Below, piece after piece: positions 487 through 20,148 of a DNA stretch of 38,964 bases. Source of the stretch: Escherichia phage HK542. The position numbers and the translations under genes were made by a program. The notes below the pieces were generated by a model. The model was not told where the DNA came from, did not search any database, and saw only the letters and a list, made by a program, of their open reading frames with translations. How positions within the stretch are numbered: the stretch's first letter is position 1; each line of letters begins with the position of its first letter. Location: sequence record NC_019769.1; one strand, 5' to 3'.

Positions 487-492
487 AAGACT

Positions 493-3281: not shown

Positions 3282-3286
3282 TTTTT

Positions 3287-3976
3287 ATGGGGGCCGTAAT
3301 GCCTGAAATCGTAAAAACGCTGTCCTTCGACGAGACAGAAATCAAATTCACCGGTGACGGTAAACAGGGGATTTTTGAAGGCTACGCCTCTGTTTTTAAT
3401 AACACCGATTCCGATGGCGACATCATTCTGCCCGGGGCGTTTAAAAACGCGCTGGCGAACCAGACCCGAAAAGTGGCGATGTTTTTTAACCACAGGACGT
3501 GGGAACTGCCGGTTGGCAAATGGGACAGCCTGGCTGAGGACGAAAAAGGCCTGTATGTGCGCGGTCAACTTACCCCAGGACACAGCGGCGCCGCTGACCT
3601 GAAAGCGGCAATGCAGCACGGTACGGTTGAAGGTATGTCGGTTGGCTTTTCCGTTTCGAAAGACGATTACACCATCATTCCAACAGGCCGCATTTTTAAG
3701 AATATCCAGGCTCTGCGCGAAATCAGCGTCTGCACTTTCCCCGCCAACGAACAGGCTGGCATCGCAGCCATGAAAAGTGTCGATGGTATTGAAACGATTC
3801 GTGATGTGGAGAACTGGCTGAGGGATTCAGTCGGCCTCACCAAATCACAGGCAGTTGGGCTAATTGCCCGGTTTAAGTCAGCGATTCGGAGCGAGTCCGA
3901 GGGCGACGGAAACGAAGCACAAATAAACGCTCTGCTTCAGAGCATCAAATCTTTCCCTTCTAACTTAGGTAAATAA
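3287..3976 (+). CDS. Prohead maturation protease (HK97 family, peptidase U35-like)
   Basis: 229 aa between portal and capsid gene; N-terminal region typical of HK97-type prohead proteases; alternative start at ATG 3299. Confidence 0.85.
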   Translation: MGAVMPEIVKTLSFDETEIKFTGDGKQGIFEGYASVFNNTDSDGDIILPGAFKNALANQTRKVAMFFNHRTWELPVGKWDSLAEDEKGLYVRGQLTPGHSGAADLKAAMQHGTVEGMSVGFSVSKDDYTIIPTGRIFKNIQALREISVCTFPANEQAGIAAMKSVDGIETIRDVENWLRDSVGLTKSQAVGLIARFKSAIRSESEGDGNEAQINALLQSIKSFPSNLGK

Positions 3977-3978
3977 TT

Positions 3979-5136
3979 ATGTCTGAACTCGCTCTCATTC
4001 AAAAAGCTATCGAAGAATCCCAGCAGAAAATGACCCAGCTTTTCGATGCGCAGAAAGCAGAAATCGAAAGCACAGGCCAGGTTTCCAAACAGTTGCAGTC
4101 CGACCTGATGAAAGTACAGGAAGAGCTGACCAAATCCGGCACTCGCCTCTTCGATCTGGAACAGAAACTGGCATCCGGCGCTGAGAATCCTGGTGAGAAG
4201 AAATCCTTCTCTGAACGGGCTGCTGAAGAGCTTATTAAGTCATGGGACGGTAAACAGGGCACCTTTGGCGCTAAAACGTTTAACAAGTCACTAGGCAGTG
4301 ACGCTGATTCGGCTGGCTCACTGATCCAGCCTATGCAGATCCCAGGCATCATCATGCCAGGCCTGCGCCGTCTTACCATTCGTGATCTGCTGGCTCAGGG
4401 CCGCACTTCCAGTAACGCTCTGGAATATGTGCGTGAAGAGGTGTTTACCAATAACGCCGACGTGGTGGCAGAGAAAGCACTGAAGCCAGAATCGGATATC
4501 ACCTTCAGCAAACAAACCGCGAACGTGAAGACCATCGCGCACTGGGTGCAGGCATCACGTCAGGTGATGGATGATGCGCCAATGCTTCAGTCCTACATTA
4601 ACAACCGCCTCATGTACGGCCTGGCACTGAAGGAAGAGGGCCAGCTGCTGAACGGCGACGGTACCGGGGATAACCTGGAAGGGCTGAACAAAGTGGCAAC
4701 CGCCTATGACACCTCGCTGAATGCCACCGGCGACACCCGCGCTGACATTATCGCTCACGCTATTTATCAGGTGACCGAGTCTGAGTTCAGCGCTTCCGGT
4801 ATCGTCCTGAACCCGCGCGACTGGCACAACATCGCGTTGCTGAAAGACAATGAAGGCCGCTATATCTTCGGTGGTCCTCAGGCATTCACCAGTAACATCA
4901 TGTGGGGCTTGCCAGTGGTTCCGACTAAGGCGCAGGCCGCCGGCACCTTTACCGTAGGCGGTTTCGATATGGCCTCACAGGTCTGGGATCGCATGGATGC
5001 CACCGTGGAAGTTAGCCGTGAAGACCGCGATAACTTCGTGAAAAACATGCTGACCATCCTGTGCGAAGAGCGTCTGGCGCTGGCGCATTATCGCCCGACA
5101 GCAATCATCAAGGGCACCTTCTCTTCTGGCTCATGA
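3979..5136 (+). CDS. Major capsid protein, HK97 fold
   Basis: 385 aa; from memory, matches HK97 gp5 along its length, including the delta-domain boundary (FNKS/LGSDADSAG) and the Lys (AEKALKPESD) and Asn (SREDRDNFVKNM) crosslink contexts. Confidence 0.95.
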   Translation: MSELALIQKAIEESQQKMTQLFDAQKAEIESTGQVSKQLQSDLMKVQEELTKSGTRLFDLEQKLASGAENPGEKKSFSERAAEELIKSWDGKQGTFGAKTFNKSLGSDADSAGSLIQPMQIPGIIMPGLRRLTIRDLLAQGRTSSNALEYVREEVFTNNADVVAEKALKPESDITFSKQTANVKTIAHWVQASRQVMDDAPMLQSYINNRLMYGLALKEEGQLLNGDGTGDNLEGLNKVATAYDTSLNATGDTRADIIAHAIYQVTESEFSASGIVLNPRDWHNIALLKDNEGRYIFGGPQAFTSNIMWGLPVVPTKAQAAGTFTVGGFDMASQVWDRMDATVEVSREDRDNFVKNMLTILCEERLALAHYRPTAIIKGTFSSGS

Positions 5137-5142
5137 TGGAGG

Positions 5143-5164
5143 GGGCGGGGAAACCCGCCCTTTT
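5143..5164 (+). terminator. Hairpin with GAAA loop and short T-run after capsid gene
   Basis: gggcggg-gaaa-cccgccc followed by tttt, 7 nt after the capsid stop. Confidence 0.45.
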
Positions 5165-5169
5165 AACGT

Positions 5170-5496
5170 ATGGCGATAGATGTTCTGGATGTAATTTCCC
5201 TCAGTCTGTTTAAGCAGCAGATTGAGTTTGAGGAAGACGACAGGGACGAGCTGATCACGCTGTACGCCCAGGCCGCTTTTGACTACTGCATGCGCTGGTG
5301 CGATGAACCAGCATGGAAGGTTGCGGCTGATATTCCTGCCGCCGTTAAGGGCGCCGTTCTGCTTGTCTTTGCTGACATGTTTGAACACCGGACGGCACAA
5401 AGCGAAGTGCAGCTTTATGAGAATGCAGCCGCCGAACGCATGATGTTCATTCATCGCAACTGGCGCGGTAAAGCCGAATCAGAGGAGGGCTCCTGA
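5170..5496 (+). CDS. Head-tail connector (gp6-like)
   Basis: 108-aa ORF directly after capsid gene; size and position. Confidence 0.6.
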   Translation: MAIDVLDVISLSLFKQQIEFEEDDRDELITLYAQAAFDYCMRWCDEPAWKVAADIPAAVKGAVLLVFADMFEHRTAQSEVQLYENAAAERMMFIHRNWRGKAESEEGS

Positions 5497-5834
5497 TGGA
5501 ACCAGGACGATTCAGGCACCGGGTAAAAATTCTCACCTTCACGACTTCGCGCGATCCATCTGGTCAGCCGGTTGAATCGTGGACAGGTGGCAACCCGGTC
5601 CCGGCTGAGGTAAAGGGGATCAGCGGCAGAGAGCAGCTTTCAGGCGGCGCGGAAACGGCGCAGGCAACGATTCGCGTCTGGATGCGCTTCAGGTCAGAGC
5701 TGAATGCCTCTTCTCGTCTGGAAGTGCTCAGCGGCCCGTATAAAGGTCAGGTGCTAAATATCATCGGTCCTCCTGTAGCAAATGCGACTGGCACTCGCCT
5801 GGAAATTCTTTGCAAAACGGGAGCTGAAAAATGA
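5496..5834 (+). CDS. Head closure / head-tail adaptor protein
   Basis: 112-aa ORF with start/stop overlap to neighbours; position in head-tail joining block. Confidence 0.6.
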   Translation: MEPGRFRHRVKILTFTTSRDPSGQPVESWTGGNPVPAEVKGISGREQLSGGAETAQATIRVWMRFRSELNASSRLEVLSGPYKGQVLNIIGPPVANATGTRLEILCKTGAEK

Positions 5835-6280
5835 TTGAGACGAGCCTCGATTTTTCCGGGTTAAATGACATCGCAAAGGATCTGGAGGCGCTTAGCCGCG
5901 CTGAAAACAATAAGGTTCTTCGTGATGCCACCCGCGCCGGCGCGGAAGTGCTTAAGGAAGAAGTGATCGCCCGCGCTCCGGTGCGTACCGGCAAACTGAA
6001 AAAAAACGTGGTGGTGGTGACCCAAAAAAGCCGTCGCCGCGGGGAAATTTCTTCCGGCGTCCATATTCGTGGCGTTAACCCGCGCACCGGAAACAGCGAT
6101 AACACGATGAAGGCTAATAACCCGAGAAACGCCTTTTACTGGCGATTCGTTGAAATGGGAACTGCCAACATGACGGCACATCCTTTCATTCGTCCAGCGT
6201 TTGACGTCCGACAGGAGCAGGCGACAGAGGTCGCGATCAGGCGCATGAACCAGGCCATCGATGAGGCATTAAGCAAATGA
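5831..6280 (+). CDS. HK97 gp10-family tail component
   Basis: 149 aa; motifs APVRTGKL and FVEMGT...HPFIRPAF typical of the HK97 gp10-like family. Confidence 0.7.
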   Translation: MIETSLDFSGLNDIAKDLEALSRAENNKVLRDATRAGAEVLKEEVIARAPVRTGKLKKNVVVVTQKSRRRGEISSGVHIRGVNPRTGNSDNTMKANNPRNAFYWRFVEMGTANMTAHPFIRPAFDVRQEQATEVAIRRMNQAIDEALSK

Positions 6281-6624
6281 CGGAAGACGATCTCTATCCT
6301 CTGCTGGAACCGCTGGCAGGAGGGCAGGTTTATCCCTACGTTGCGCCGCTCGGCAGTGACGGGAAGCCTTCAGTATCTCCGCCCTGGGTAATTTTCTCGA
6401 TTATTACCGACGTGGCCGCAGACGTTCTCTGCGGTCAGGCTGAATCTGCCGTTTCTGTGCAGGTTGATGTCTATTCCAGCACAATCACTGAAGCGCGCAC
6501 AATCAGGAATATGGCGCTTGATGCCCTGCAGGTGCTGAAGCCGGGAAGCATTGTTAAAACGCCGGGCTATGAGCCTGATCTGCGCTATCACCGGGCAACG
6601 CTCGAATTTCAGGTAACCGTTTAA
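6277..6624 (+). CDS. Tail completion protein (DUF3168-like)
   Basis: 115 aa, overlapping upstream stop; position before major tail gene. Confidence 0.55.
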   Translation: MTEDDLYPLLEPLAGGQVYPYVAPLGSDGKPSVSPPWVIFSIITDVAADVLCGQAESAVSVQVDVYSSTITEARTIRNMALDALQVLKPGSIVKTPGYEPDLRYHRATLEFQVTV

Positions 6625-6640
6625 CTTTTCCCACCATAAC

Positions 6641-6665
6641 AGACCGCTCTGGCGGTCTTTTTTTA
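6641..6665 (+). terminator. Intrinsic terminator-like hairpin before major tail gene
   Basis: agaccgc-tctg-gcggtct followed by tttttttat. Confidence 0.6.
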
Positions 6666-6677
6666 TCTGGAGAAATC

Positions 6678-7148
6678 ATGACCAGTAAGTATGAAGTTAC
6701 AAAGGGGATGACCTTTGCCGTCTCCGACGCACCCGTAACCGCCGAGGATTTTAATGCCTTAGGTTTCCCGGGGGATGGTGTTACCTGGCTGGAAGCGGCC
6801 TGCGCAACAAAGGAGATCACCTTCACGGGCGGTCAAAAAGGGGATATTGACGTAACCACGCTTTGCTCAACTGAACAGGAGCAAACCAACGGCCTCGCCG
6901 CGCCTGCTGAAATGAGCATTACCCGTAACTGGGTTGGCGATGAAGCAGCACAGGGGGCACTGCAGACCGCTTACGAAAATGACGAACTGCGCGCGCTGCG
7001 CGTGGTATTCCCGTCTGGCAACGGTTTCTACGTGCTGGTGGAGGTACGCCAGAGCTCATGGTCTGCTGCAACCTCTTCCGTTGTTGGCGCCACCTATTCT
7101 CTGCGTGTACGCGGCAAACCTAAACGCATCCACGCGTCTGGTTCCTGA
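6678..7148 (+). CDS. Major tail (tube) protein
   Basis: 156 aa with strong RBS; directly upstream of the G/GT chaperone pair; followed by a terminator hairpin. Confidence 0.75.
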   Translation: MTSKYEVTKGMTFAVSDAPVTAEDFNALGFPGDGVTWLEAACATKEITFTGGQKGDIDVTTLCSTEQEQTNGLAAPAEMSITRNWVGDEAAQGALQTAYENDELRALRVVFPSGNGFYVLVEVRQSSWSAATSSVVGATYSLRVRGKPKRIHASGS

Positions 7149-7170
7149 GCGGCTTCGGCCGCTTTTTTTA
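7148..7170 (+). terminator. Intrinsic terminator-like hairpin after major tail gene
   Basis: agcggc-ttcg-gccgct with a UUCG-type loop followed by ttttttt. Confidence 0.6.
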
Positions 7171-7202
7171 TCCCTCCGATCATGTAACAAGAGAAAAATG
7201 AA

Positions 7203-7604
7203 ATGGCGCAAAAAACATCACAGAATTCATTACGCAACGTGGCGCTTACAGCATCGAAAGCCTATCGCACCAAAGAAGGTATCACGGTCCCTGAATGGGA
7301 TGGCGCAAAGGTAACGCTGCGTGAACCCTCTGGCGATGCCTGGGTGAAATTCCGGGAGATCGTTAACCCACAGCTCGCCGAGGGCGAAGAGGCACCGACG
7401 CTGACGGAGGCGGAAAAGTTTCTGCGTAACAAAGATGCTGATGTGGTTCTGTTTATTGACGTTCTGCTGGATGAAAACGGCGAGCGAGTATTCAGCGATG
7501 AGGATCAGGAGCAGGTATCTAAAATTTATGGTCCTGTGCACTCCCGCCTGCTGGCTCAGGCCCTCAACCTCGGAATGAGCCAGGAAGAAGCGGGAAAGCC
7601 GTAA
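7203..7604 (+). CDS. Tail assembly chaperone (lambda G analogue)
   Basis: 133-aa acidic ORF ending just after the slippery heptamer GGGAAAG. Confidence 0.75.
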   Translation: MAQKTSQNSLRNVALTASKAYRTKEGITVPEWDGAKVTLREPSGDAWVKFREIVNPQLAEGEEAPTLTEAEKFLRNKDADVVLFIDVLLDENGERVFSDEDQEQVSKIYGPVHSRLLAQALNLGMSQEEAGKP

Positions 7605-7891
7605 AGCAGCCGCTGACCTTCTTCCTGATGTCGCTGGCGCTCCGGTTGGGACGTACTCTCCACGAACTGCGCCAGAACATGACCGCCAGCGAGCTCAAAA
7701 TGTGGATCGAGTTCGACCGCATCAGTCCGATTGGTGACTGGCGCGCCGATGCTCAGGCGGCGCAGATCTCCGTTGCAATGCTGAACTCTCAGGGCGGGAA
7801 ATTCACCATTCCTGACGTGATGCTGAAATGGGGTGAGCAGGAAGAAGGCGCTGAAGTCTCTGAACTTGAAGAATGGATGTCCAGTCTTTGA
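7203..7891 (+). CDS. Tail assembly chaperone GT fusion (via -1 frameshift at 7592-7598)
   Basis: G frame to 7598, then -1 frame through the 87-aa T-like ORF (7628..7891 in the track); same arrangement as lambda G/GT. Confidence 0.65.
7592..7598 (+). promoter_or_regulatory. Programmed -1 ribosomal frameshift site (GGGAAAG)
   Basis: Heptamer G GGA AAG in the G frame, 4 nt before the G stop; the -1 frame is open from here to 7891. Confidence 0.7.
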
Positions 7892-7892
7892 T

Positions 7893-7915
7893 GCCCGCGG
7901 CTGCGGGCTTTTTTA
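7893..7915 (+). terminator. Terminator-like hairpin before tape measure gene
   Basis: gcccgc-ggct-gcgggc followed by ttttttatgg. Confidence 0.55.
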
Positions 7916-7925
7916 TGGGTGAAAT

Positions 7926-10900
7926 ATGGCAACGCTGCGCGAGCTAATCATCAAAATTTCGGCGAACTCTTCTTCTTTTCAGTCAGAGATCGCCAGAGCG
8001 TCCCGCATGGGAACCGATTACTACCGCACTATGGAACAGGGCGGGAAAAAAGCTGCAGCGGCCACGCGTGAAACTCAGCGGTCTTTGGCTGACCTGAATT
8101 CTCAGCTTGCAACCGTGCGATCCTCTGCTGCCGGGCTTGCCGGTGCGTGGGCTGGTGCATTTGCCACGCATCAGCTGATTCAGTTTGCCGACACGTGGAA
8201 CCAGTTGAATGGGCGTCTTCGCCTTGCGTCCTCTTCCAGTGAGGATTACGTGCAATCCCAGCGCGTGCTGATGGAGATTAGCCAGCGCACCGGAACATCC
8301 CTCGAGGCAAACAGCAACCTGTACAGCCGAATTGCGCAGTCCCTGCGTGATGCCGGTTACGCTTCTGCTGACGTCGCAAAAGTTACGGAAACCGTAGCAA
8401 CCTCACTGAAGCTGTCTGGCGCCAGTACCGAAGAGGCGAGTTCTGTTATCACCCAGCTTAGCCAGGCACTTGGCTCAGGCGTTTTGCGAGGCGAAGAATT
8501 TAACTCCATCATGGAGAACGGTGGACGCCTGGCGAAACTGCTGGCTGATGGGCTGGGTACCACTGTTGGTGGCCTGCGAAATATGGCCAACAACGGCGAG
8601 CTGACGACCAACAAGATCGTCCCGCTGCTGACCAACGTTGAGATCCTCCGTAAAGAATTCGACACCCTTCCTGCATCCATCAGCGGATCTGCACAGAAAG
8701 TGCAAAACGCCTTCCTTGCATGGGTTGGCGGGGCGAACGATGCGGTCGGCGCATCATCAACGCTTTCCGGCGTGCTGGATGGTCTGGCGAATAACATCGA
8801 TGATGTGGCGAACACCGCAGGCATTCTGGTTGGTGTTGGCCTCGCTCGTTATTTTGGCAACATGGTCGGCAGCGTTGCTCAGTCAACCCGGGCAGTCCTC
8901 GCTAATACGGCCGCCGAGGTCGCGCTGGCGCAGGCTCAGGTTCGCGGAGCTCAGGTTAGCGTTGCTGCTGGTCGCCAGGCTGTTTACCGCGCTCAACAGG
9001 CGCGCGCAGCGGCGACGAGTATTGAGGCTCAGATTGTCGCTGAGCGTAATCTTGCTGCTGCTCAGGCATCACTGAATACGGCGCTTGCTGGCAGGACTTC
9101 GGCCGTTAATAACCTCACCAATACAGCCTCGGTGATGTCCCGCCTGGGTAGTGGCGTTCTTGGCATTCTCGGTGGCTGGCCTGGAGTGATTATCGGTGCC
9201 GGCGCTGCGATGTATGGCCTTTATCAGCATACCCAGCAGGTGCACCGTGAGGCGGTAGGTTTTGCCAACAACCTTGACGAGATCAACACCAAGCTCCAGC
9301 AGATGTCGGTGCTTGGCCTGCGTTCGACCGCGGCTGATGCCCGTACATCTTTACAGGCGCAAAAACAGGACCTGGCCGACCTCGACTCTCAGATTGCGAA
9401 GGTGAAAGACAGTCTTAAGGCGGTTGATCAAATCCAGCAGGACTACAACCGCCATCCGACGCTGACCCTGATCAACACCTTCATGGACCAGGCCGACATC
9501 ACGGCCAAAAACATCGAGCTTACCGATAAGCTGAACCAGCTTGAGTACCAGCGCGAACAGGCAGCCTCAAAAGTCGAGCAAACGCAGAAGCTGGTTAATC
9601 AGGCCAGTGATCTGGCTACACAAAAGGCTATCGAACAGGCTGGCGCTGTCTCAATCCTGAAAGGTGCGTATGACCTGCTTAACCGCTCGATGTCAGCGAC
9701 CGCTGGCGCCAAGCCGCCGCAATATGCCGGGCCCGTCGTCTCACTGGCGAATGCAACGCCTCAACAGCAAACTGCACTGGAGCGCTCGCGCCGCGATAAT
9801 GAGCTAGCCAGCTTAAGCGGATTAGAGAAACTCCATCAGCAGCACGTCTACGAAGCAGAAGACCTGCAGCTGACGGGGGCGCTTTACACCCAGTACATCT
9901 ACAACAAGGATCAGGCAGCCAAAAAGGATGCAGCAGCTGCAGAGGCAAAAAAAACCTCTACCGCCGCCTCGAAAGCGCAGAGTAAAGCCGAGCGCGAAGC
10001 GGCCAGCACCGCCGAACAGTATTCCCGGAAAATGGCCGATCTGAGCGTGGCTATCGATGTGCAACGCGTCCGGGCCACGGAAGGAGAAAAAGCCTCTGAG
10101 CTTTACGCGGCGTCGCACCAGGCAGGCACTAAATGGACCGACGAGCAGCGCAGAGCAATCCAGGCATCATCAACAGAGCTGGCAAAATGGACGCAAAAAG
10201 CCGACGAGAACGTGCGCAAGCAGCGCGAACAGGCTGATGCCCTGAAGGATTTAACTGAAGCGGCCCGAAAGTTCAGGGATGAGGCGACGCTGACAACCGA
10301 AACCGCAGGCATGAGTGATCGTCAGCGCAGCCGGTTCGATGAGACGCAACAGATCGACCGTGTTTTTGCTAAAACGGACGGCGGCATCGAGGCCATCGCA
10401 CAGCGCGCCGCAGCCCTCGATGCTCTGGAGGAGAAATACAAGGCTATTGCAGCAGCTGAAGCGGATTGGATGTTCGGTGTATCACGCGGCTATGCCAACT
10501 GGTTTGATGAAATCAGTGATGTATCCGGAACGGTTTCTGACGGGGTGAAAACCACACTCGACAGCGCGTTTGGTAACGTCACCTCAATGCTCGAAGGCAA
10601 TAAAGTTAGCTGGAAATCGTGGGGTATTTCTGTCCTGCAGATTATCGAAAAAGTGGCTCTGCAGATGGCGGTGGTTAGCGCGATGGGTGGGGCCTCTTCC
10701 GGTTCTGGCATCTTTGGCTCACTCATCGGCAGTGTAGGCAGCTTCTTCGGGGGCGGGGCGGGAGCATCAGCCAGCACCGGTACGGCGGTTTCCAGTTACG
10801 GATCGAACTTCCAGTTTAACGCCAAAGGCGGCGTTTATGACTCCCCCTCTCTGAGCGCTTTCAGTAATGGGATCGTCAGAAACCCCACCATGTTCGCTTT

Positions 10901-11207
10901 CGCAAAAGGCGGGGCCGGAATCATGGGCGAGGCTGGGCCGGAGGCGATCATGCCGCTTACCCGCGCGCCGGATGGTTCTCTCGGCGTTCGTGCGGTCGGA
11001 GGTGGCGGCGGTCAGTCTGTATCTTCGGCGCCACAGGTTTATATCACCATCGATGGCAACGGCAACACTCAAACTCAGGCCTCACCAGGCCTTGAGCAAT
11101 TTGGTGCCGAGGTCGGGGAATTTGTTGATCGACGTTATAAGCAGAATGTGATGCGTGACATTCGTCCCGGCGGCGACATCTGGAACGCAATGAAAGGAAC
11201 CCGATAA
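7926..11207 (+). CDS. Tail tape measure protein
   Basis: 1093 aa, Ala/Gln-rich coiled-coil composition and Gly-rich C-terminus; sits between GT and M. Confidence 0.9.
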   Translation: MATLRELIIKISANSSSFQSEIARASRMGTDYYRTMEQGGKKAAAATRETQRSLADLNSQLATVRSSAAGLAGAWAGAFATHQLIQFADTWNQLNGRLRLASSSSEDYVQSQRVLMEISQRTGTSLEANSNLYSRIAQSLRDAGYASADVAKVTETVATSLKLSGASTEEASSVITQLSQALGSGVLRGEEFNSIMENGGRLAKLLADGLGTTVGGLRNMANNGELTTNKIVPLLTNVEILRKEFDTLPASISGSAQKVQNAFLAWVGGANDAVGASSTLSGVLDGLANNIDDVANTAGILVGVGLARYFGNMVGSVAQSTRAVLANTAAEVALAQAQVRGAQVSVAAGRQAVYRAQQARAAATSIEAQIVAERNLAAAQASLNTALAGRTSAVNNLTNTASVMSRLGSGVLGILGGWPGVIIGAGAAMYGLYQHTQQVHREAVGFANNLDEINTKLQQMSVLGLRSTAADARTSLQAQKQDLADLDSQIAKVKDSLKAVDQIQQDYNRHPTLTLINTFMDQADITAKNIELTDKLNQLEYQREQAASKVEQTQKLVNQASDLATQKAIEQAGAVSILKGAYDLLNRSMSATAGAKPPQYAGPVVSLANATPQQQTALERSRRDNELASLSGLEKLHQQHVYEAEDLQLTGALYTQYIYNKDQAAKKDAAAAEAKKTSTAASKAQSKAEREAASTAEQYSRKMADLSVAIDVQRVRATEGEKASELYAASHQAGTKWTDEQRRAIQASSTELAKWTQKADENVRKQREQADALKDLTEAARKFRDEATLTTETAGMSDRQRSRFDETQQIDRVFAKTDGGIEAIAQRAAALDALEEKYKAIAAAEADWMFGVSRGYANWFDEISDVSGTVSDGVKTTLDSAFGNVTSMLEGNKVSWKSWGISVLQIIEKVALQMAVVSAMGGASSGSGIFGSLIGSVGSFFGGGAGASASTGTAVSSYGSNFQFNAKGGVYDSPSLSAFSNGIVRNPTMFAFAKGGAGIMGEAGPEAIMPLTRAPDGSLGVRAVGGGGGQSVSSAPQVYITIDGNGNTQTQASPGLEQFGAEVGEFVDRRYKQNVMRDIRPGGDIWNAMKGTR

Positions 11208-11209
11208 TT

Positions 11210-11548
11210 ATGGCCATTGAAACTTTCACCTGGTGCCCACGGATTAACGCGGAGGCTGATACAAGTTTCCGCGTCAGAAAAGCCCAGTTTGGCGATGGAT
11301 ATGAGCAGGTTTCAGGGGATGGATTGAACACCAGAACCCAGCAATGGACGCTCAACTTCACTGGCAACGAAACCTACATTTCTGCCATTAAATCTTTTCT
11401 CGACAGGCATGAAGGAACGAAAGCCTTTCAATGGAAGCCGCCGCTCGAGCCTTTGGGTTTGTATCGTTGCGAAACGTATAAACCCACCGGGCTGGGTGCG
11501 GGAAAATTCAACCTTGAAGCAACATTCATCCAGGCATTTAAACCATGA
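11210..11548 (+). CDS. Minor tail protein M-like
   Basis: 112 aa immediately after tape measure; lambda gpM-like size and position. Confidence 0.75.
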   Translation: MAIETFTWCPRINAEADTSFRVRKAQFGDGYEQVSGDGLNTRTQQWTLNFTGNETYISAIKSFLDRHEGTKAFQWKPPLEPLGLYRCETYKPTGLGAGKFNLEATFIQAFKP

Positions 11549-12303
11549 GCTTAAACGCAGACTATCAGAAGCTTGAATCCGGAAACGATGTTCGTCTGAT
11601 TGAGGTGGACGGTTCTTCCTTTGGGCTAACGGACGTTCTCCGCTTTCACAATTACCGCATTCCCCACACGGAAGCGGAAATCATCGCCGCTGGTGGGGAT
11701 GAGTCCAAGCTTCCGGCGAAACCAATCTGGTGGCAGGGAAATGAATACGCCGCCTGGCCGTATCAGCTGGAAGGCCTGGAAAAATCAACCAGTGGGAGCA
11801 ATGCAACGCCATCACTGACGGTTGCGAACATCGAAAGCTCTATTTCTGCCATGTGTCTTGCGTATGACGATCTGCTGCAGGCGAAAGTCACTATTCACGA
11901 CACAAAAGAGAAATATCTCGATGCCAGAAATTTCGCGGACGGCAACCCCACAGCAGACCCGACTCAGGAAAAGCTGCAGGTCTGGTATATCGACGGGAAA
12001 ACTGGCGAGCTTGCCGGTGAAACCGTTGAATTTGTTCTGTCCAGCCCGATGGACCTGCAGGGGCAAATGATCCCGACGCGACAGCTTCATTCCCTGTGTA
12101 CCTGGTGCATCCGGAATAAATATCGTACCGGCGACGGCTGCGACTATGCCGGCACCCGCTATTTCGACAAAAACAACAACCCGGTAAGCGATCCGTCGCT
12201 GGATGAATGCAACGGCACGCTGACGGCCTGCAAACTCCGATTCGGCGAAAATAACGAACTCTCGTTTGGTGGCTTCCCGGGCACGTCTTTGATCAGGAGT
12301 TGA
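11545..12303 (+). CDS. Minor tail protein L-like
   Basis: 252 aa with a Cys cluster near the C-terminus, as in lambda gpL; overlaps M stop. Confidence 0.8.
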   Translation: MSLNADYQKLESGNDVRLIEVDGSSFGLTDVLRFHNYRIPHTEAEIIAAGGDESKLPAKPIWWQGNEYAAWPYQLEGLEKSTSGSNATPSLTVANIESSISAMCLAYDDLLQAKVTIHDTKEKYLDARNFADGNPTADPTQEKLQVWYIDGKTGELAGETVEFVLSSPMDLQGQMIPTRQLHSLCTWCIRNKYRTGDGCDYAGTRYFDKNNNPVSDPSLDECNGTLTACKLRFGENNELSFGGFPGTSLIRS

Positions 12304-12304
12304 T

Positions 12305-13015
12305 ATGCGTCAGAAAACCATCGATGCGATTATGGCGCATGCTGCAGCTGAATATCCTCATGAGTGTTGCGGCGTGGTGGCGCAGAAAAGCCGCGTTGAA
12401 CGTTATTTCCCGTGCCGGAATCTTGCCGCGGCGCCGGAGGACAATTTTGTCCTTTGCCCCGAAGACTACGCAGCTGCTGAGGACTGGGGAACGGTGATCG
12501 CCATCGTTCACAGTCACCCTGACGCCACAACGCAGCCGAGCGAACTGGATAAAGCGCAATGCGACGCAACGCTTTTACCCTGGCATATTGTGAGCTGGCC
12601 GGAGGGGGATTTACGCACCATCCAGCCGCGCGGAGAACTGCCACTGCTGGAGCGTCCGTTTGTGCTTGGACACTTCGACTGCTGGGGGCTGGTAATGAGC
12701 TATTTCCGGCAAACGCATGGTATCGAGCTCCACGATTACCGGGTGGATTATCCCTGGTGGGAAAACGCCTATCCGGACAATTTTTATCAGGATTGCTGGT
12801 ATGAATGCGGATTCAGGGAGTTTGACGGCCCGCCTCAGGAAGGGGACCTCGTCATCATGCAGGTGCAGGCCGATAAGTGGAATCATGCCGGGATTTTACT
12901 GGAGGGTAACATGCTGCTGCACCACCTGTACGGACATCTGAGCCAGCGCGTGCCGTATGGTGGCTACTGGCAGGAAAGGACGATGAAGATTCTTAGACAT
13001 CAGAATTTTATTTAA
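12305..13015 (+). CDS. Tail assembly protein K-like (MPN/JAMM plus NlpC/P60 domains)
   Basis: 236 aa; HSHPDA JAMM-like motif N-terminally and a Cys-His (DCWGLV) peptidase-like region C-terminally. Confidence 0.8.
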   Translation: MRQKTIDAIMAHAAAEYPHECCGVVAQKSRVERYFPCRNLAAAPEDNFVLCPEDYAAAEDWGTVIAIVHSHPDATTQPSELDKAQCDATLLPWHIVSWPEGDLRTIQPRGELPLLERPFVLGHFDCWGLVMSYFRQTHGIELHDYRVDYPWWENAYPDNFYQDCWYECGFREFDGPPQEGDLVIMQVQADKWNHAGILLEGNMLLHHLYGHLSQRVPYGGYWQERTMKILRHQNFI

Positions 13016-13062
13016 CAAACTGTCACTGATACTATCGTGTAGTACACAGCAAGGAGAACGAT

Positions 13063-13287
13063 ATGTATACAGTTGGGTTTGGTTGGATCTTCGTCGGTAT
13101 TTTTATTGGGTTAATTCTCTGGTTTTTCATCAACCGCGCCAGCGTCAGAGCGAACAGGCAGGTTGAATTACTTGAGTCTATCGACCAGAAATTATCAAAA
13201 ATAGTAGATCCAAACTTCGAGGCAAATAACAAAGACCAGTCGAAAGAAAACTACCTTGAAGAAGCAAGGAAAAAAGCTGGGCTTTGA
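13063..13287 (+). CDS. Small single-pass membrane protein (moron between K and I)
   Basis: 74 aa; AAGGAG RBS 7 nt upstream; one N-terminal TM helix (VGFGWIFVGIFIGLILWFFI) and a charged C-tail; AT-rich; own terminator. Confidence 0.5.
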   Translation: MYTVGFGWIFVGIFIGLILWFFINRASVRANRQVELLESIDQKLSKIVDPNFEANNKDQSKENYLEEARKKAGL

Positions 13288-13302
13288 GAGCGTAAATTAA
13301 CA

Positions 13303-13326
13303 AACCACCTACGGGTGGTTTTTTTA
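13303..13326 (+). terminator. Intrinsic terminator after the small membrane ORF
   Basis: aaccacc-tacg-ggtggtt followed by tttttttatgg. Confidence 0.65.
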
Positions 13327-13336
13327 TGGGGGCAGC

Positions 13337-13945
13337 ATGCAAGAGGTAATGACAAGAATTGAGCTAAGTGGCGTGCTAGCTAAGACATATGGAAGGGTTC
13401 ATCACCGTCTGGTTCGCACTACTGCTGAAGCCATTAATGCACTCGCGAAAACCATCAATGGATTCGAGAAATTCTTAAACACAAGCAAGGCCCGAGGGCT
13501 GACGTATGCCGTTTATAGAGATAAAAAGAATATTGGCGTTGATGATCTCGGCTTTCCCGTCACCGGCGAAGTGATCCGGATTGTCCCTGTAGTAATAGGG
13601 AGTAAAAAGGCTGGTCTTTTGCAGACAATCCTAGGGGCCGTGCTTATTACTGCTGCTGTATTGACTGGCCCTGGCGGTATTGGCGCTGCTTTCGCTGCTG
13701 GTGGATTGACGGGGTTTGCTGCTGCCACTGGCGCCTCGTTGGTCCTCGGTGGGGTTATTCAGCTTCTTTCACCACAGCCATCAGGCATAGCCAGCAAACA
13801 AAGCGCAGATAACCGTGCATCGTATGCATTCGGCGGTGTTACAAACACCGCGGCACAGGGGTACCCGGTGCCTCTGCTTTATGGTAAGCGTCGAATCGGC
13901 GGAGCGATTATTTCTGCAGGAATTTATGTCGAAGATCAGCAGTAG
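13337..13945 (+). CDS. Tail assembly protein I-like
   Basis: 202 aa with Gly/Ala-rich hydrophobic C-terminal half as in lambda gpI; directly precedes J. Confidence 0.75.
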   Translation: MQEVMTRIELSGVLAKTYGRVHHRLVRTTAEAINALAKTINGFEKFLNTSKARGLTYAVYRDKKNIGVDDLGFPVTGEVIRIVPVVIGSKKAGLLQTILGAVLITAAVLTGPGGIGAAFAAGGLTGFAAATGASLVLGGVIQLLSPQPSGIASKQSADNRASYAFGGVTNTAAQGYPVPLLYGKRRIGGAIISAGIYVEDQQ

Positions 13946-13963
13946 ATAACTAACCTTTTTACA

Positions 13964-13988
13964 AGCCACCTCCGGGTGGCTTTTTTTA
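13964..13988 (+). terminator. Terminator-like hairpin between I and J
   Basis: agccacc-tccg-ggtggct followed by tttttttatgg; near-identical to the hairpin at 13303-13326. Confidence 0.55.
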
Positions 13989-13998
13989 TGGACGCAAT

Positions 13999-16900
13999 AT
14001 GGCAACTGCAACCGCGATTAAAGGCCGCAAAGGCGGTAGTTCAAAGACACGCACTCCAACTGAACAGCCCGATGATCTGCAGTCAGTTGCGAAGGCGAAA
14101 ATTTTAATCGCCCTTGGCGAGGGCGAGTTCTCCGGGCAATTAACCGGCAAAGATATCTACCTGGACGGAACAGCGCTGGAGAATGCTGACGGCTCCCAAA
14201 ACTTCAGCGGGGTAACGTGGGAGTTTCGCGCGGGAACGCAGGCGCAAAAATATATTCAGGGTATTCCCGGTACCGAAAACGAGATCAGCGTAGGAACTGA
14301 GGTATCAAGTGCCACAGCCTGGACGCGCACGTTTACCAATACGCAGCTTTCAGCAGTTCGCCTGCGTCTTAAATGGCCCTCGCTTTTCAAACAGGAAGAC
14401 GACGGCGATCTGGTGGGTTACTCGGTCAATTATGCGATTGACCTGCAGACTGACGGCGGCACATGGCAGACGGTACTCAATACCAGCGTGACCGGCAAAA
14501 CGACGTCTGGTTATGAGCGCAGCCACCGTATCGATTTACCGCAGGCTGGCAGCACATGGACAATACGTCTGCGTAAGATTACCTCTGACGCCAACAGCGC
14601 GAAGATCGGCGACACGATGATGCTGCAGAGCTTCACCGAGGTGATTGACGCCAAACTGCGCTACCCGAACACCGCGCTGCTCTACGTCGAATTCGACTCA
14701 AGCCAGTTCAACGGCTCTATTCCTCAAATTTCATGCGAACCGCGCGGCCGCGTTATCCGCGTTCCAGATACCTACGACCCTGAAACCCGCACTTATAGCG
14801 GTACATGGACCGGTGCGTTTAAGTGGGCATGGACGGATAACCCTGCGTGGATTTTTTACGACCTGGTTGTTTCTGACCGGTTCGGCCTTGGGCACCGTTT
14901 GACCGCTGCGAATATTGATAAATGGACGCTTTATCAGGTTGCTCAGTATTGTGATCAGATGGTACCAGACGGCAAAGGGGGCAACGGTACAGAACCACGC
15001 TATACCTGCAACGTGTACATTCAGGACCGGAACGACGCCTACACAGTCCTGCGTGATTTTGCCGCTATCTTCCGTGGCATGACCTACTGGGGCGGGGATC
15101 AGATTGTGGCCCTGGCTGACATGCCGCGCGATGTTGATTACAGCTATACGCGCGCTAACGTTGTTGGCGGTCGCTTCACCTATTCGAGCAGCACCACGAA
15201 AAGCCGCTACACCACAGCGCTGGTTTCATGGTCAGACCCGGGTAACGCTTATGCCGACGCGATGGAGCCGGTATTTGAGCAGGCGCTGGTGGCGCGGTAC
15301 GGCTTCAATCAGCTGGAAATGACAGCCATCGGCTGCACCAGGCAGTCAGAGGCGAACCGAAAGGGGCGCTGGGGTATTCTCACCAATAACAAGGATCGCG
15401 TTGTTTCGTTTGATGTCGGGCTGGACGGAAACATTCCGCAGCCTGGCTACATCATCGCCGTGGCAGACGAGCTGCTTTCCGGAAAGGTTATGGGCGGCCG
15501 CATCAGCGCCGTTAACGGTCGCGTTATCAAACTTGACCGCGTAGCTGATGCAGCACCAGGTGATCGCCTTATTCTCAACCTTCCCTCCGGAGCGTCGCAG
15601 AGCAGGACCATTCAGGCCGTGAACGGGGAATCAGTCACAGTCACCACGGCATACAGTGAGACGCCACAGGCCGAAGCTGTTTGGGTGGTTGAATCTGACG
15701 AGCTCTACGCGCAGCAGTATCGAGTTGTCAGCGTTTCCGATAACAATGATGGCACTTTCTCGATTACCGGCGCATGGCACGACCCGGATAAATATGCCCG
15801 TATCGATACCGGAGCCATCATTGACCAACGGCCGGTGAGCGTGATCCCGCCGGGCAACCAGTCGCCGCCTGCGAATATCGTGATCAGCTCGTTTTCCGTG
15901 GTTCAGCAAAATATCAGCGTCGAAACAATGCGCGTGAGCTGGGACCAGGCGCAGAACGCTATCGCCTATGAAGCGCAATGGCGCCGCAACGACGGGAACT
16001 GGGTTAACGTGCCGCGCACCTCCACCACGTCATTCGACGTCCCGGGGATTTATGCCGGGCGCTACCTGGTGCGGGTGCGCGCAATCAATGCCGCAGAAAT
16101 TTCATCCGGATGGGGCTATTCAGAAGAGAAAACGCTGACGGGTAAAGTGGGCAATCCACCGAAGCCGGTTGGCTTTATCGCCTCTGAAAACGTGGTGTTC
16201 GGTATCGAGCTGAACTGGGGATTCCCGGCGAATACCGACGACACGCTGAAGACGGAAATTCAGTACAGCCTGACCGGGAGCGAAGATGATGCCATTCTTC
16301 TGAGCGATGTTCCCTATCCGCAGCGCAAGTATCAGCAGATGGGCCTGAAGGCGGGGCAAATTTTCTGGTACCGGGCGCAGCTGGTGGACAGGACAGGCAA
16401 TGAGTCGGGTTATACCGACTGGGTACGTGGACAGGCCAGTATCGATGTGTCGGATATCACCGATGTTATCCTGGAGGACATTAAAGAATCGGACACGTTC
16501 AAGGAACTGATCGAAAGCGCAGTAGACAGCAACGAAAAAATTGCTGGTATGGCTGACGATATCAGACAGAACGCTGACGATCTGGAGCAACAGGCGCTGG
16601 CCATCAAGGAAAACGCCGATGGGCTCGCCCAGGCCGAGGTGAAGATTGACGAAATCTCTGTCTCGATGGATGGCATGACGGGAGGCGTTAAAAACTCCTC
16701 TATCGCGGTTATTCAGAACAGCCTCGCGCAGGTCACCAGCCGTCGATCCCAGACAGCCACCAACGCCGGGAACAGCGCCAGCATCGACCGTATCGATACC
16801 ACCATTGCAGATACCAGCCAGGCGGTTGCCCGTGCGCTGGTTACGCTTGATGCTTCTGCCGGTGGTAATGTCTCAAACGCGACCGATCTCACCGAAACCC

Positions 16901-17454
16901 TTGCTGATTTCACGCAGGCCTCGGCCACGAAAATCAACTCCCTGACGGTTACGGTAAACGGCCAGACAGCGGCTATTAACCAGACCGCGCAGGCGGTGGC
17001 TGATGTGAACGGTAACCTCAGCGCGATGTATAACATCAAGGTTGGCGTTTCCAGCAACGGTCAGTATTACGCCGCGGGCATGGGGATTGGTGTTGAGAAT
17101 ACGCCGTCCGGGATGCAGTCGCAGGTCATCTTCCTGGCTGACCGCTTCGCCGTCACCACGGCAGCAGGTAACAGCGTGGCTTTGCCGTTTGTGATCCAGA
17201 ATGGACAGACATTCATCCGGGCCAGTTTCATCCAGGACGGCACTATCAGCAACGCAAAGATTGGTAATTTTATCCAGTCGAACAATTATGTTGCTGGTTC
17301 TGCTGGCTGGAAGCTTGATAAAGGGGGGACGTTTGAGAACTACGGTTCGACTGCTGGTGAGGGAGCCATGAAACTGACAAATCAGACGATCAGCGTCAAA
17401 GATGGCAGTAATGTTCTTAGGGTGCAGGTTGGACGATTAACGGGAGTATTCTGA
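13999..17454 (+). CDS. Host specificity / central tail fibre protein J-like
   Basis: 1151 aa, the largest tail ORF downstream of I; lambda gpJ-like size and position. Confidence 0.88.
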   Translation: MATATAIKGRKGGSSKTRTPTEQPDDLQSVAKAKILIALGEGEFSGQLTGKDIYLDGTALENADGSQNFSGVTWEFRAGTQAQKYIQGIPGTENEISVGTEVSSATAWTRTFTNTQLSAVRLRLKWPSLFKQEDDGDLVGYSVNYAIDLQTDGGTWQTVLNTSVTGKTTSGYERSHRIDLPQAGSTWTIRLRKITSDANSAKIGDTMMLQSFTEVIDAKLRYPNTALLYVEFDSSQFNGSIPQISCEPRGRVIRVPDTYDPETRTYSGTWTGAFKWAWTDNPAWIFYDLVVSDRFGLGHRLTAANIDKWTLYQVAQYCDQMVPDGKGGNGTEPRYTCNVYIQDRNDAYTVLRDFAAIFRGMTYWGGDQIVALADMPRDVDYSYTRANVVGGRFTYSSSTTKSRYTTALVSWSDPGNAYADAMEPVFEQALVARYGFNQLEMTAIGCTRQSEANRKGRWGILTNNKDRVVSFDVGLDGNIPQPGYIIAVADELLSGKVMGGRISAVNGRVIKLDRVADAAPGDRLILNLPSGASQSRTIQAVNGESVTVTTAYSETPQAEAVWVVESDELYAQQYRVVSVSDNNDGTFSITGAWHDPDKYARIDTGAIIDQRPVSVIPPGNQSPPANIVISSFSVVQQNISVETMRVSWDQAQNAIAYEAQWRRNDGNWVNVPRTSTTSFDVPGIYAGRYLVRVRAINAAEISSGWGYSEEKTLTGKVGNPPKPVGFIASENVVFGIELNWGFPANTDDTLKTEIQYSLTGSEDDAILLSDVPYPQRKYQQMGLKAGQIFWYRAQLVDRTGNESGYTDWVRGQASIDVSDITDVILEDIKESDTFKELIESAVDSNEKIAGMADDIRQNADDLEQQALAIKENADGLAQAEVKIDEISVSMDGMTGGVKNSSIAVIQNSLAQVTSRRSQTATNAGNSASIDRIDTTIADTSQAVARALVTLDASAGGNVSNATDLTETLADFTQASATKINSLTVTVNGQTAAINQTAQAVADVNGNLSAMYNIKVGVSSNGQYYAAGMGIGVENTPSGMQSQVIFLADRFAVTTAAGNSVALPFVIQNGQTFIRASFIQDGTISNAKIGNFIQSNNYVAGSAGWKLDKGGTFENYGSTAGEGAMKLTNQTISVKDGSNVLRVQVGRLTGVF

Positions 17455-17455
17455 A

Positions 17456-17758
17456 ATGGCTTATGGAATACAGACCTGGGATGCTTCAGGAAAACCCAAC
17501 AACTATGGCATCAAACCCGTTTCCGTCGTTGGGCGAATACAGCTGGCTGCCGGGCAAACCTCCGGCAGCTGGTCTTTTACGGTGCCCTCAGGAATGAAAG
17601 TTGGTTTTGTTCTTTCACTTGATGAAGGAGGTAACAGCGTAGGGCGGCGCATTGTCGCGTCAGGGAGCACAATAACCGTAAGCGCTGCATCTTCTGTAGG
17701 CCTGGGAAATTATCCGGCCTCAAAATGTGAGGTGGTTGTTTTCATGGAGAAAGCATAA
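17456..17758 (+). CDS. Hypothetical tail-associated protein
   Basis: 100-aa ORF starting 2 nt after J stop. Confidence 0.45.
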   Translation: MAYGIQTWDASGKPNNYGIKPVSVVGRIQLAAGQTSGSWSFTVPSGMKVGFVLSLDEGGNSVGRRIVASGSTITVSAASSVGLGNYPASKCEVVVFMEKA

Positions 17759-18396
17759 TGGCCGAATTTGGCGCGATGATATTAATGGACAACGGGAACC
17801 CATTTGTAACGCCCCAGTCAACGCCTTTTTGTCTTTACGGCAAGTACACTTTCAACTCCTCTGCTAATGGCAGTTCGCAGCAGGTTGCTCAGAATATTGC
17901 ATTAAATGCTGACTACCCTGTGATGGTATTTATCAGGACCACAAATACCGCCCAGCCCACGCCAGTAATATCTTACCGGAACGGCGGAAATATATATGTC
18001 GCGGGGGTTAATCCTTATAACCAGAGCTTCACGTTAACTGCATATATATTTGCCATATTTCCACAGACGTTACCGAAGTGGGGGATGGCAATCTGGGATT
18101 CGAGCGGGAAGCTGGTACTCACTAATGAGTCCCGCGTGCTGTCAGACTTGCAGACAATCGGAACGCCTGGAGCAAACGGCGGGATTAACATTGACCAGAC
18201 GCTTGATGGTTCATGGGCAGTGGCTCCATCAAGGCTGGGGCAAGTGAACAGAAACGACGCTTACTCATCTTGTAGGTATTCAGGCACAAGTACAAGAATA
18301 AACGCCGGTACAGCCGCAAATACACCTGGCGGTGCTGGAGGGGTGATAAATAATGGAATTATCCTGACAGCAATTAAAACAGACGCCTATGATTGA
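17758..18396 (+). CDS. Hypothetical tail-associated protein
   Basis: 212-aa ORF with TAATG overlap to the upstream ORF. Confidence 0.45.
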   Translation: MAEFGAMILMDNGNPFVTPQSTPFCLYGKYTFNSSANGSSQQVAQNIALNADYPVMVFIRTTNTAQPTPVISYRNGGNIYVAGVNPYNQSFTLTAYIFAIFPQTLPKWGMAIWDSSGKLVLTNESRVLSDLQTIGTPGANGGINIDQTLDGSWAVAPSRLGQVNRNDAYSSCRYSGTSTRINAGTAANTPGGAGGVINNGIILTAIKTDAYD

Positions 18397-18503
18397 TTAT
18401 TTTGAGCGATCAATAACAAATAATTTATCTATCTAATCAATTATACCCATCGATTATGTATTGGTATCTTCGAAGCTACTGAATACCTCTGGATACTATC
18501 AAA

Positions 18504-18737
18504 ATGAAAAGGCTAATTATCTGCATAGCGGGCGCTTTAATGCTGTCTGGTTGCGCTGGTGTACTTGAGAAACAGAAACCGATTTGCAGCGGCACGGCAT
18601 ATATGGGTGGCCATGAGAATACCGTTATGATTTACGCCGTTCGAAAGCAAAACAACCAGACGCAATACCGGGCCGGATATCCCTTTAACTGGCGCTGGGT
18701 AAGTGCGAACACATTCACAAGCACGACATGTAAATAA
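18504..18737 (+). CDS. Small lipoprotein (moron)
   Basis: 77 aa; signal peptide with lipobox LSGC; AT-rich upstream leader and downstream terminator. Confidence 0.6.
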   Translation: MKRLIICIAGALMLSGCAGVLEKQKPICSGTAYMGGHENTVMIYAVRKQNNQTQYRAGYPFNWRWVSANTFTSTTCK

Positions 18738-18757
18738 CTCATGATTTTCAATGCAAA

Positions 18758-18782
18758 CCTCGCCTCGGCGGGGTTTTTTATT
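18758..18782 (+). terminator. Intrinsic terminator after lipoprotein gene
   Basis: cctcgc-ctcg-gcgggg followed by ttttttatt. Confidence 0.6.
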
Positions 18783-18795
18783 GCCTGGAGAAAAT

Positions 18796-20148
18796 ATGCT
18801 TTATAACACTGGAACCATCGCCATTAACGGAAACAGCGCCACCGGCACGGGCACGAACTGGACGGCACCCGCCAGCCAGGTTCGCGCTGGCCAGACGATT
18901 ATCGTGATGTCTAACCCGGTGCAGCTGTTTCAGATTTCATCCGTGAACAGCGCCACGTCAATGACGGTTACTCCAGCTGCTTCCCCGGCGCTGAGCGGCC
19001 AGAAGTATGGAATTCTTGTGTCGGACATTATCTCGGTCGACGGACTGGCACAGGCCATGTCACAGCTCATCAACGAGTACGATGAGAATATTGGTGCATG
19101 GGAGACGTTCGCTACTACCTCAGCGAACCAGATTATCACTGTAACCATCAACGGTACCTCCGTGAATATTCCGGGCATTGGTGGCCTGGCTCGAAAAGGG
19201 GCAAACAGCGATATCACGGAGCTGAAAGGGCTCACTACTGCGCTTTCTATTGCGCAGGGCGGCACCGGTGCAACGAACGCTGCAGACGTTCGCACAAACC
19301 TCGGTTTGGGAACAGCGGCTACATCCAATACCTTGACCAATGTTGTAGACCAAAGCGCTGGGGCGCTTGTAAGAAACAGTGATTTCGGTATCGGTGGTAA
19401 TGGTGGCGCAGGGGAAGGTGTGCCTATTGGTAGCTATGGCAATAATGCAAACTACATGGCATTAAATGGCTGGTACGGTGGTGCGGGTGTTAACGCCGTA
19501 AACCATTTTGACGGCTTCTCCCCATTATTGACAATGTGCCGGTTCGCTGGTGGTTACATTGGACAAATTCAGATTACTAAATCCGGTAAAATGGGTATTC
19601 GTGGAGGTACTGGAGCAACAACTTCAAATCAGGGCACATGGACACCGTGGTATGAGGTTTACAGCACTGGTAACACGACAAAATCCAGCGACGGTACACT
19701 GAAGGCTGCGTCTCCGGTTGCACGTATCGTTAAAAGCCAGGGGGAATGCCAGCGCGCCGATATAACTGAGGATGGTTTCTCCTGGTGCGGCTGTGGTACG
19801 GCGAACGCCGAGGCGGAGGGAATAACCATTTCCCGCCTCGAGGTGGGTGTTTACTTGCTGGCCGGTTCGGCAGGACTTGCGTCAGAGGGATGGCAACTGC
19901 TGCCGCCAATGGACCCTGGCGGAATGGGAGAGCTTGGCGTTGTCGAAGCAGAACAGACCGAAAGCGGCGAGCTGACAATCCGTCTTTTCAAGCGAAAATA
20001 TATCCTGAGCGATGAAGGTGAGGTCATCAAAACCAAAGGTGAACCGATTGACGTCCCGGCGAACAGCTGGATCGATGTTCGTCTTGATATGCCAGAAAAC
20101 AGTGTCTGGAATCAGCGCCAGAAAGAGGCGATTGAACCTGCTTCATAA
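18796..20148 (+). CDS. Tail fibre protein
   Basis: 450 aa from ATG 18796 with GGAG RBS; contains the tail-fibre repeat motif SIAQGGTGATNAADVRTNLGLG; the track start at 18751 would include the terminator hairpin. Confidence 0.75.
   Translation: MLYNTGTIAINGNSATGTGTNWTAPASQVRAGQTIIVMSNPVQLFQISSVNSATSMTVTPAASPALSGQKYGILVSDIISVDGLAQAMSQLINEYDENIGAWETFATTSANQIITVTINGTSVNIPGIGGLARKGANSDITELKGLTTALSIAQGGTGATNAADVRTNLGLGTAATSNTLTNVVDQSAGALVRNSDFGIGGNGGAGEGVPIGSYGNNANYMALNGWYGGAGVNAVNHFDGFSPLLTMCRFAGGYIGQIQITKSGKMGIRGGTGATTSNQGTWTPWYEVYSTGNTTKSSDGTLKAASPVARIVKSQGECQRADITEDGFSWCGCGTANAEAEGITISRLEVGVYLLAGSAGLASEGWQLLPPMDPGGMGELGVVEAEQTESGELTIRLFKRKYILSDEGEVIKTKGEPIDVPANSWIDVRLDMPENSVWNQRQKEAIEPAS

Follow-up and report, generated by a model that had tools for sequence, protein, structure and literature searches.

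The HK97 protein gp15 is reportedly a superinfection-exclusion moron (Cumby et al. 2012, 2015), and it is the first named moron product. The original definition of morons, with which the element studied here was also described, goes back to Juhala et al. (2000; cited in PMC3594210). According to PMC3594210, gp15 is made from the prophage, inserts in the inner membrane, and keeps HK97 and HK75 from injecting their genomes; its N-terminus resembles YebO while its C-terminus has diverged, and HK97 is unaffected by either deletion or overexpression of YebO. PMC12939059 and bioRxiv 10.1101/2025.12.01.691526 describe gp15 as acting via a complex of the tape-measure protein with PtsG. P22 SieA, Tuc2009 Sie2009, and TP-J34 Ltp are further envelope proteins that are made from a prophage and prevent DNA from entering once a phage has adsorbed, and in the siphophage cases it is the tape-measure protein that determines specificity (PMC10883804).

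We analyzed a window of 38,964 nucleotides from Escherichia phage HK542 (NC_019769.1), by which we mean the whole stretch of DNA under study. The window belongs to the HK97-like lambdoid phages (Hendrixvirinae), with best overall matches to ECP1, mEp506, HK446, HK75, and HK544. An initial annotation had proposed that a 74-aa ORF with its own AAGGAG ribosome-binding site, a single transmembrane helix, and an intrinsic terminator forms a moron in AT-rich DNA between tail genes K and I, and that its product might act in exclusion or as a toxin. Both the ORF (13063–13287) and its ribosome-binding site (13051–13056) are present, and the locus comprises the following features.

12305 to 13015, plus strand: tail-tip gene K, the left flank, lambda K-like, with matches to Pfam Prok-JAB and NlpC/P60
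13027 to 13035, plus strand: putative extended −10 element TGATACTAT, a predicted feature of the form TGnTAnnnT, 27 nt 5′ of the gene 20 ATG
13051 to 13056, plus strand: Shine–Dalgarno sequence AAGGAG of gene 20, seen directly in the sequence, with the ATG 6 nt further on
13063 to 13287, plus strand: gene 20, from the ORF list, with an ATG start, for a predicted 74-aa YebO-family single-pass membrane protein, gp20 (PF13974, PHROG 5031)
13032 to 13232, minus strand: 66-aa ORF with a TTG start, from the ORF list, antisense to and overlapping gp20
13302 to 13328, plus strand: intrinsic-terminator-like hairpin AAACCACC-TACG-GGTGGTTT followed by a T-run, found by scan and RNA folding, just 5′ of the gene I ribosome-binding site and ATG
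13337 to 13945, plus strand: tail-tip assembly gene I, the right flank, with a Pfam Lambda_tail_I match of 28.6 bits against a cut-off of 23.8

The element is not new: HK97, HK022, and their lambdoid relatives carry it as the gene 20 moron, annotated in HK022 since 2000. The 551 bases around the ORF are 99 to 100% identical in 26 phage records, which include those of HK97, HK022, HK75, HK544, HK633, HK106, mEp234, mEp235, and mEpX1. The depositors of HK022 labeled the identical ORF of that phage (HK022_20, AAF30371.1) “moron gene product.” The HK97 record names K as Gp19 and I as Gp21 and annotates the terminator, but the CDS feature for gene 20 is missing and the numbering jumps from 19 to 21. 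The gene is nevertheless the same in both phages, with 99.5 to 99.6% DNA identity over the K-gp20-I segment and a protein that is 100% identical to HK022 gp20 and 98 to 99% identical to the HK97 product. It occupies the same slot between K and I with the same terminator, and there is no difference of substance. Among 5,426 complete E. coli genomes, the gene was found in 7, within prophage tail clusters, where the NCBI annotation pipeline labels it “YebO family protein.” A separate annotation slip, off by one gene, was observed in ECP1 (KY979108.1), in which the K gene (ECP1_040, 206–916, 236 aa) is mislabeled “YebO” and the true YebO-like ORF (ECP1_041, 964–1188) is called “hypothetical protein.” A literature search returned no experimental work on gp20, nor any defined function of YebO. 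What the present analysis adds is the link of gp20 to the YebO/gp15 family, a conserved extended −10 motif, the breakpoints and alternative cargo of the slot, a distribution over three junctions, and the signature of strong purifying selection on gene 20 (dN/dS 0.06).

The base composition of the locus bears out the AT-rich character claimed for it, with GC content near 40% as opposed to 52 to 60% in the flanks (0.39–0.42 across positions 13000–13350, 0.52–0.60 in K, and approximately 0.54–0.59 in the body of I). Homologous copies of the gene have GC values of 0.35 to 0.41 throughout. Comparison with the homologue at locus L029, whose protein is 91% identical, revealed 21 synonymous and 8 nonsynonymous differences (dN/dS 0.06), and in remoter homologues synonymous sites are saturated while protein identity is still 50 to 76%. 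Judged by these substitution patterns, gene 20 is a real gene under strong purifying selection. The antisense ORF is probably spurious, given that the pattern of substitutions among homologues matches the plus-strand frame. An Rfam scan of positions 12800 to 14100 gave no match near threshold, and thus the region is not a known sRNA or riboswitch.

The gp20 protein scores 47.7 bits (E = 1.8e-12) with Pfam YebO (PF13974), whose curated cut-off is 27, and matches PHROG 5031 with E = 7e-41, the latter being a family listed without known function. A search of NCBIfam yielded sub-threshold noise only. As had been noted initially, a single transmembrane helix is predicted: the Kyte–Doolittle hydropathy maximum (19-residue window) is 2.36 at residues 5 to 23, followed by R25, R29, and R32. 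An AlphaFold2 model computed from a 28-sequence alignment contains helices only, with one long helix at residues 3 to 48 and a weaker one at residues 52 to 71 (mean pLDDT 69.9). Alignments, hydropathy, and the model together give the layout of the YebO family, wherein a single N-terminal transmembrane helix is followed by a conserved NRAS-R-N-Q-ELLE segment. By the positive-inside rule, the three arginines after the transmembrane residues predict an N-out/C-in single-pass topology, with a short periplasmic N-terminus and, in the cytoplasm, some 50 residues of helical tail.

HK97 gp15 matches the same two families, PF13974 and PHROG 5031, and is 43% identical to gp20 over 44 aa (BLASTP E = 5e-9). 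The two proteins share an N-terminal transmembrane helix, a basic juxtamembrane segment, and a further helix, and both are encoded by AT-rich cassettes consisting of a Shine–Dalgarno sequence, an ORF, and a hairpin with T-run within the tail operon. However, gp15 sits at the T–H junction whereas gp20 sits at K–I, and their C-terminal tails do not align and are unrelated: that of the gp20 subfamily ends in a conserved YLEEARKKAGL motif that is found in neither gp15 nor YebO. The chromosomal YebO of E. coli K-12 (b1825, downstream of mgrB) also belongs to PF13974 and has a core nearly identical to that of gp20, with 73% identity over the 30-aa segment IGLILWFFINRAS-R-N-Q-ELLE. At 95 aa, the host protein differs in its longer N-terminus, its unrelated C-terminal tail, and its chromosomal rather than phage context. 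A DNA-level search missed chromosomal yebO, which is too diverged. We also observed that yebO lies 74 bp downstream of the PhoQ inhibitor gene mgrB on the same strand (positions 2262–2767 of the K-12 locus), such that these two small membrane-protein genes could be cotranscribed.

We surveyed YebO-like ORFs by an IMG/VR pattern scan, which produced 69 loci, and by protein look-ups, which contributed three more for a total of 72. Flanking genes were labeled by tblastn with the tail proteins of the window. All 72 loci reside within siphophage tail modules and are distributed as follows.

K–I junction: 28 loci
H–M junction: 6 loci
T–H junction with a gp20-type protein: 3 loci
T–H junction with a gp15-type protein: 26 loci
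downstream of the tape-measure gene, with a different tail-tip set: 9 loci encoding 154-aa proteins with a YebO-like N-terminus

With the exception of the nine 154-aa fusions, every locus therefore maps to one of three junctions in prophages of Enterobacterales, namely T–H, H–M, or K–I. In the nine exceptions (L049–L057, at approximately 5950–6430 in each), a transmembrane helix and the motif WFFLNRASVRxNR..ELLE are fused to a C-terminal domain of about 100 aa; the layout of promoter motif and terminator is the same, and the tail-tip genes are unlike M, L, K, or I. Named homologues come nearly all from Escherichia, Enterobacter, Metakosakonia, Serratia, and Pantoea, plus one metagenome bin labeled Eubacterium sp., in keeping with a family confined to Enterobacterales, and a gp20-type gene was found in 5 of 185,579 species-representative genomes (one Enterobacter, two Serratia, and two Pantoea).

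Two aspects of this distribution bear on the relationship with gp15. First, gp20-type proteins fill the T–H slot of gp15 at loci L041, L042, and L047. Second, seven of the surveyed loci, HK97 among them, carry gp15 plus gp20, and the pair occurs together in HK97, HK75, HK446, HK544, HK633, and mEpX1, which argues that the two are not redundant. The window itself is without gp15, as the T frame stops at 7891 and the tape-measure gene begins at 7926 (window positions 7604–7926 examined), and its tape-measure protein is only 42 to 45% identical to the HK97-type protein that accompanies gp15. HK022 naturally lacks gp15 as well.

The initial annotation had stated that K and I are normally adjacent in lambda. 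They overlap in lambda and abut in the HK97-like viral contigs L065, L071, L074–76, and L078, whereas in the window, where M and L sit further upstream of K, gene 20 lies between them. DNA homology between the window and mEp390, HK140, L077, and L079 ends at 12991–12993, within the last seven or so codons of K (12994–13015), and restarts at 13300–13303, the foot of the hairpin. These breakpoints define an exchangeable unit of approximately 12994–13300, and the gene 20 cassette is thus an AT-rich element of about 310 bp. Its place is taken by a PHROG 890 lipoprotein in mEp390, a PHROG 914 protein in HK140, and a reverse-strand Lom/Ail outer-membrane protein in Providencia phage PSTRCR_117lys, and a Serratia prophage (L005) carries both a YebO-like gene and a PHROG 914 gene. 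From these assignments, the slot between K and I carries other envelope cargo, lipoproteins or Lom, in sister phages.

Gene 20 is missing or swapped in lambda, mEp390, HK140, mEpX2, L077, L079, and L065, and phages whose K is 94 to 95% identical carry unrelated genes in its place. The moron interpretation is supported by the extra DNA of deviant GC content and terminator found between K and I and matches the label given in HK022, and the relatives do not display the conserved structural tail gene that had been considered as the opposing outcome. Within the K–I loci, however, gp20 identity (54–76%) tracks that of K, L, and I (50–79%), which indicates that the gene has long been retained at this junction in one lineage, though swapped out in close relatives.

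These comparisons also dispose of the reading in which gp20 helps to build the tail tip, as a structural part or in assembly, which is hardly credible despite the position between K and I and the codivergence with flanking tail genes in one lineage, because gene 20 is absent where K and I abut in lambda and HK97-like contigs, is replaced by unrelated genes where K is nearly unchanged, and encodes a predicted integral membrane protein with its own terminator.

The terminator reported previously was recovered as a GC-rich 8-bp stem at 13302–13321 followed by seven T residues, with a predicted folding energy of −14.9 kcal/mol (z = −2.8 relative to shuffles), and it is annotated as a putative terminator after gene 20 in HK97, HK446, and other records. 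However, it is not peculiar to gene 20. Every cargo variant in the K–I slot is followed by a hairpin and T-run that are built alike but differ in the stem, and similar hairpins followed by TTTTTTATGG occur at junctions that are empty in the window, namely T–H (7893–7908) and I–J (13963–13982). Therefore, the terminator belongs to the slot as much as to the ORF. In HK97, morons fill those junctions: T–H holds gp15, and I–J holds gp22/gp23. The I–J hairpin of the window is identical in 22 of 22 bases to the terminator after the lipoprotein cargo in the K–I slot of mEp390, and all cargo junctions share the order hairpin, T-run, ATGG, short spacer, ATG. This shared layout may be a joint for cassette exchange or a leftover of lost morons.

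A scan of positions 12000 to 14500 for the sigma-70 −35/−10 consensus found no site, and we therefore compared extended −10 elements across homologous cassettes. The motif TGnTAnnnT, starting 42 to 34 nt before the start codon, is present in 13 of 22 nonredundant upstream regions of YebO-like cassettes, compared to 1.0 ± 0.95 in shuffles, a comparison that is not to be read as a probability because the loci are mutually related. Use of the annotated GTG start at L006 would raise the count to 14. Outside the motif, the surrounding sequence cannot be aligned between the deeper branches. In the window as a whole, the motif has 37 matches on both strands versus 56 expected, and only five of these fall on the plus strand of the first 18 kb. 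The conserved motif predicts a weak extended −10 promoter for gene 20. Note that sigma-70 −35/−10 sites are depleted in the late region (window positions 1–20000), where 4 occur against 13.0 ± 3.9 expected. Together with the genome-wide depletion of TGnTAnnnT, this would fit selection that keeps promoters out of the interior of the late operon.

We favor the interpretation, at a probability of about one half, that gene 20 encodes a prophage-expressed inner-membrane protein with its own predicted promoter and terminator that blocks genome injection by particular siphophages, with a specificity unlike that of gp15. The predicted weak extended −10 promoter and the terminator would permit transcription of gene 20 from the repressed prophage, and the antiterminated late transcript would run through the gene as well. 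The protein would then sit in the inner membrane and interfere at the step in which the tape-measure protein of a superinfecting siphophage engages its inner-membrane receptor. Its target range would differ from that of gp15, as suggested by the dissimilar tails and by the several phages, HK97 included, that carry both genes. The mode of action proposed here is the same as that of SieA, Sie2009, and Ltp, although these have no sequence relationship to gp20 and differ in size and topology. The exclusion role put forward in the initial annotation gains support from the homology with gp15, with which gp20 shares both its Pfam and PHROG families.

Several observations weigh against this interpretation. 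The C-terminal half of gp15, which sets it apart from the inactive YebO and is not shared by gp20, may be the part that carries exclusion activity, and YebO, whose core resembles that of gp20 more than gp15 does, had no effect on HK97 (PMC3594210). The promoter is a motif match in a region where the −35/−10 scan was empty, and the PADLOC defense models matched neither gp20 nor gp15. Moreover, gp20 is carried by HK97 and HK75 themselves, whose exclusion by HK97 lysogens is reported to be due to gp15, and so it probably does not exclude these two phages. Finally, the association with tail modules may reflect merely where morons are tolerated.

A wider form of the injection-blocking interpretation, which we offer only tentatively, is that YebO-derived proteins constitute a diversified family of injection blockers that move as promoter-ORF-terminator cassettes among T–H, H–M, and K–I, and that gp20 represents a second specificity class, distinct from gp15 and directed at another pair of tape-measure protein and inner-membrane receptor. 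Such a distinct specificity would explain why HK97-like phages keep both gp15 and gp20. If this is true, then the core shared with the host protein would hint that YebO itself is a small-protein partner of an inner-membrane transporter.

The shared core can also be taken in another direction. On this alternative, gp20 is a lysogenic-conversion protein that acts on the host's physiology and not on phages: having diverged from host YebO, it would retain the membrane partner of YebO via the core WFFINRASxRxNxQxELLE and alter the host envelope or transport to the benefit of the lysogen. We regard this as doubtful. The core of gp20 is indeed nearer to chromosomal YebO (73% over 30 aa) than to gp15 (43%), and Lom/Ail and lipoproteins are among the other cargo of the slot, proteins that in lambda are tied to interaction with the host cell (PMC3594210). 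Nevertheless, since YebO is without known function, no specific prediction follows; the sole characterized member of the family acts on phage entry; and the cassette occurs only within siphophage tail modules, beside tape-measure or tail-tip genes.

The orientation of the gene invites a further alternative. Gene 20 lies in the sense direction inside the late tail operon and must therefore be on the Q-antiterminated late mRNA, so that gp20 could be a late accessory protein of lytic growth, for example one that, once a cell has been infected, seals its inner membrane against secondary injections or against ejection by progeny, with no meaningful expression from the prophage. The failure of the scan to find a canonical −35/−10 promoter and the retention of the same slot through deep divergence of the tail genes would fit such a role. 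We consider it unlikely, however, because upstream regions that cannot otherwise be aligned share the extended −10 motif at a fixed distance, the homologue gp15 is made from the prophage (PMC3594210), and gene 20 is dispensed with in close relatives.

The toxin option raised initially, in which gp20 is a small membrane toxin or a holin-like membrane-disrupting peptide, takes account of a protein that is small, single-pass, and hydrophobic, but it is very unlikely and was rejected along with the tail-structural reading: the chromosomal member of the family is a benign, ubiquitous enterobacterial gene, neither an antitoxin nor an antisense RNA partner was found (the Rfam scan being negative), lysis genes are located elsewhere in the window, and type I toxins have no such long, conserved, polar helical tail.

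As a sequence feature, gene 20 is of limited weight, being a rediscovered textbook moron in a well-studied phage group. Its product, however, is a paralogue of one of the few characterized injection blockers of Gram-negative siphophages, and it is present in the classic laboratory phages HK97 and HK022, such that its function is easily accessible to test. If gp20 does act in exclusion, it would provide a second specificity for dissecting the passage of the tape-measure protein across the inner membrane, and it might also offer a handle on the function of YebO.
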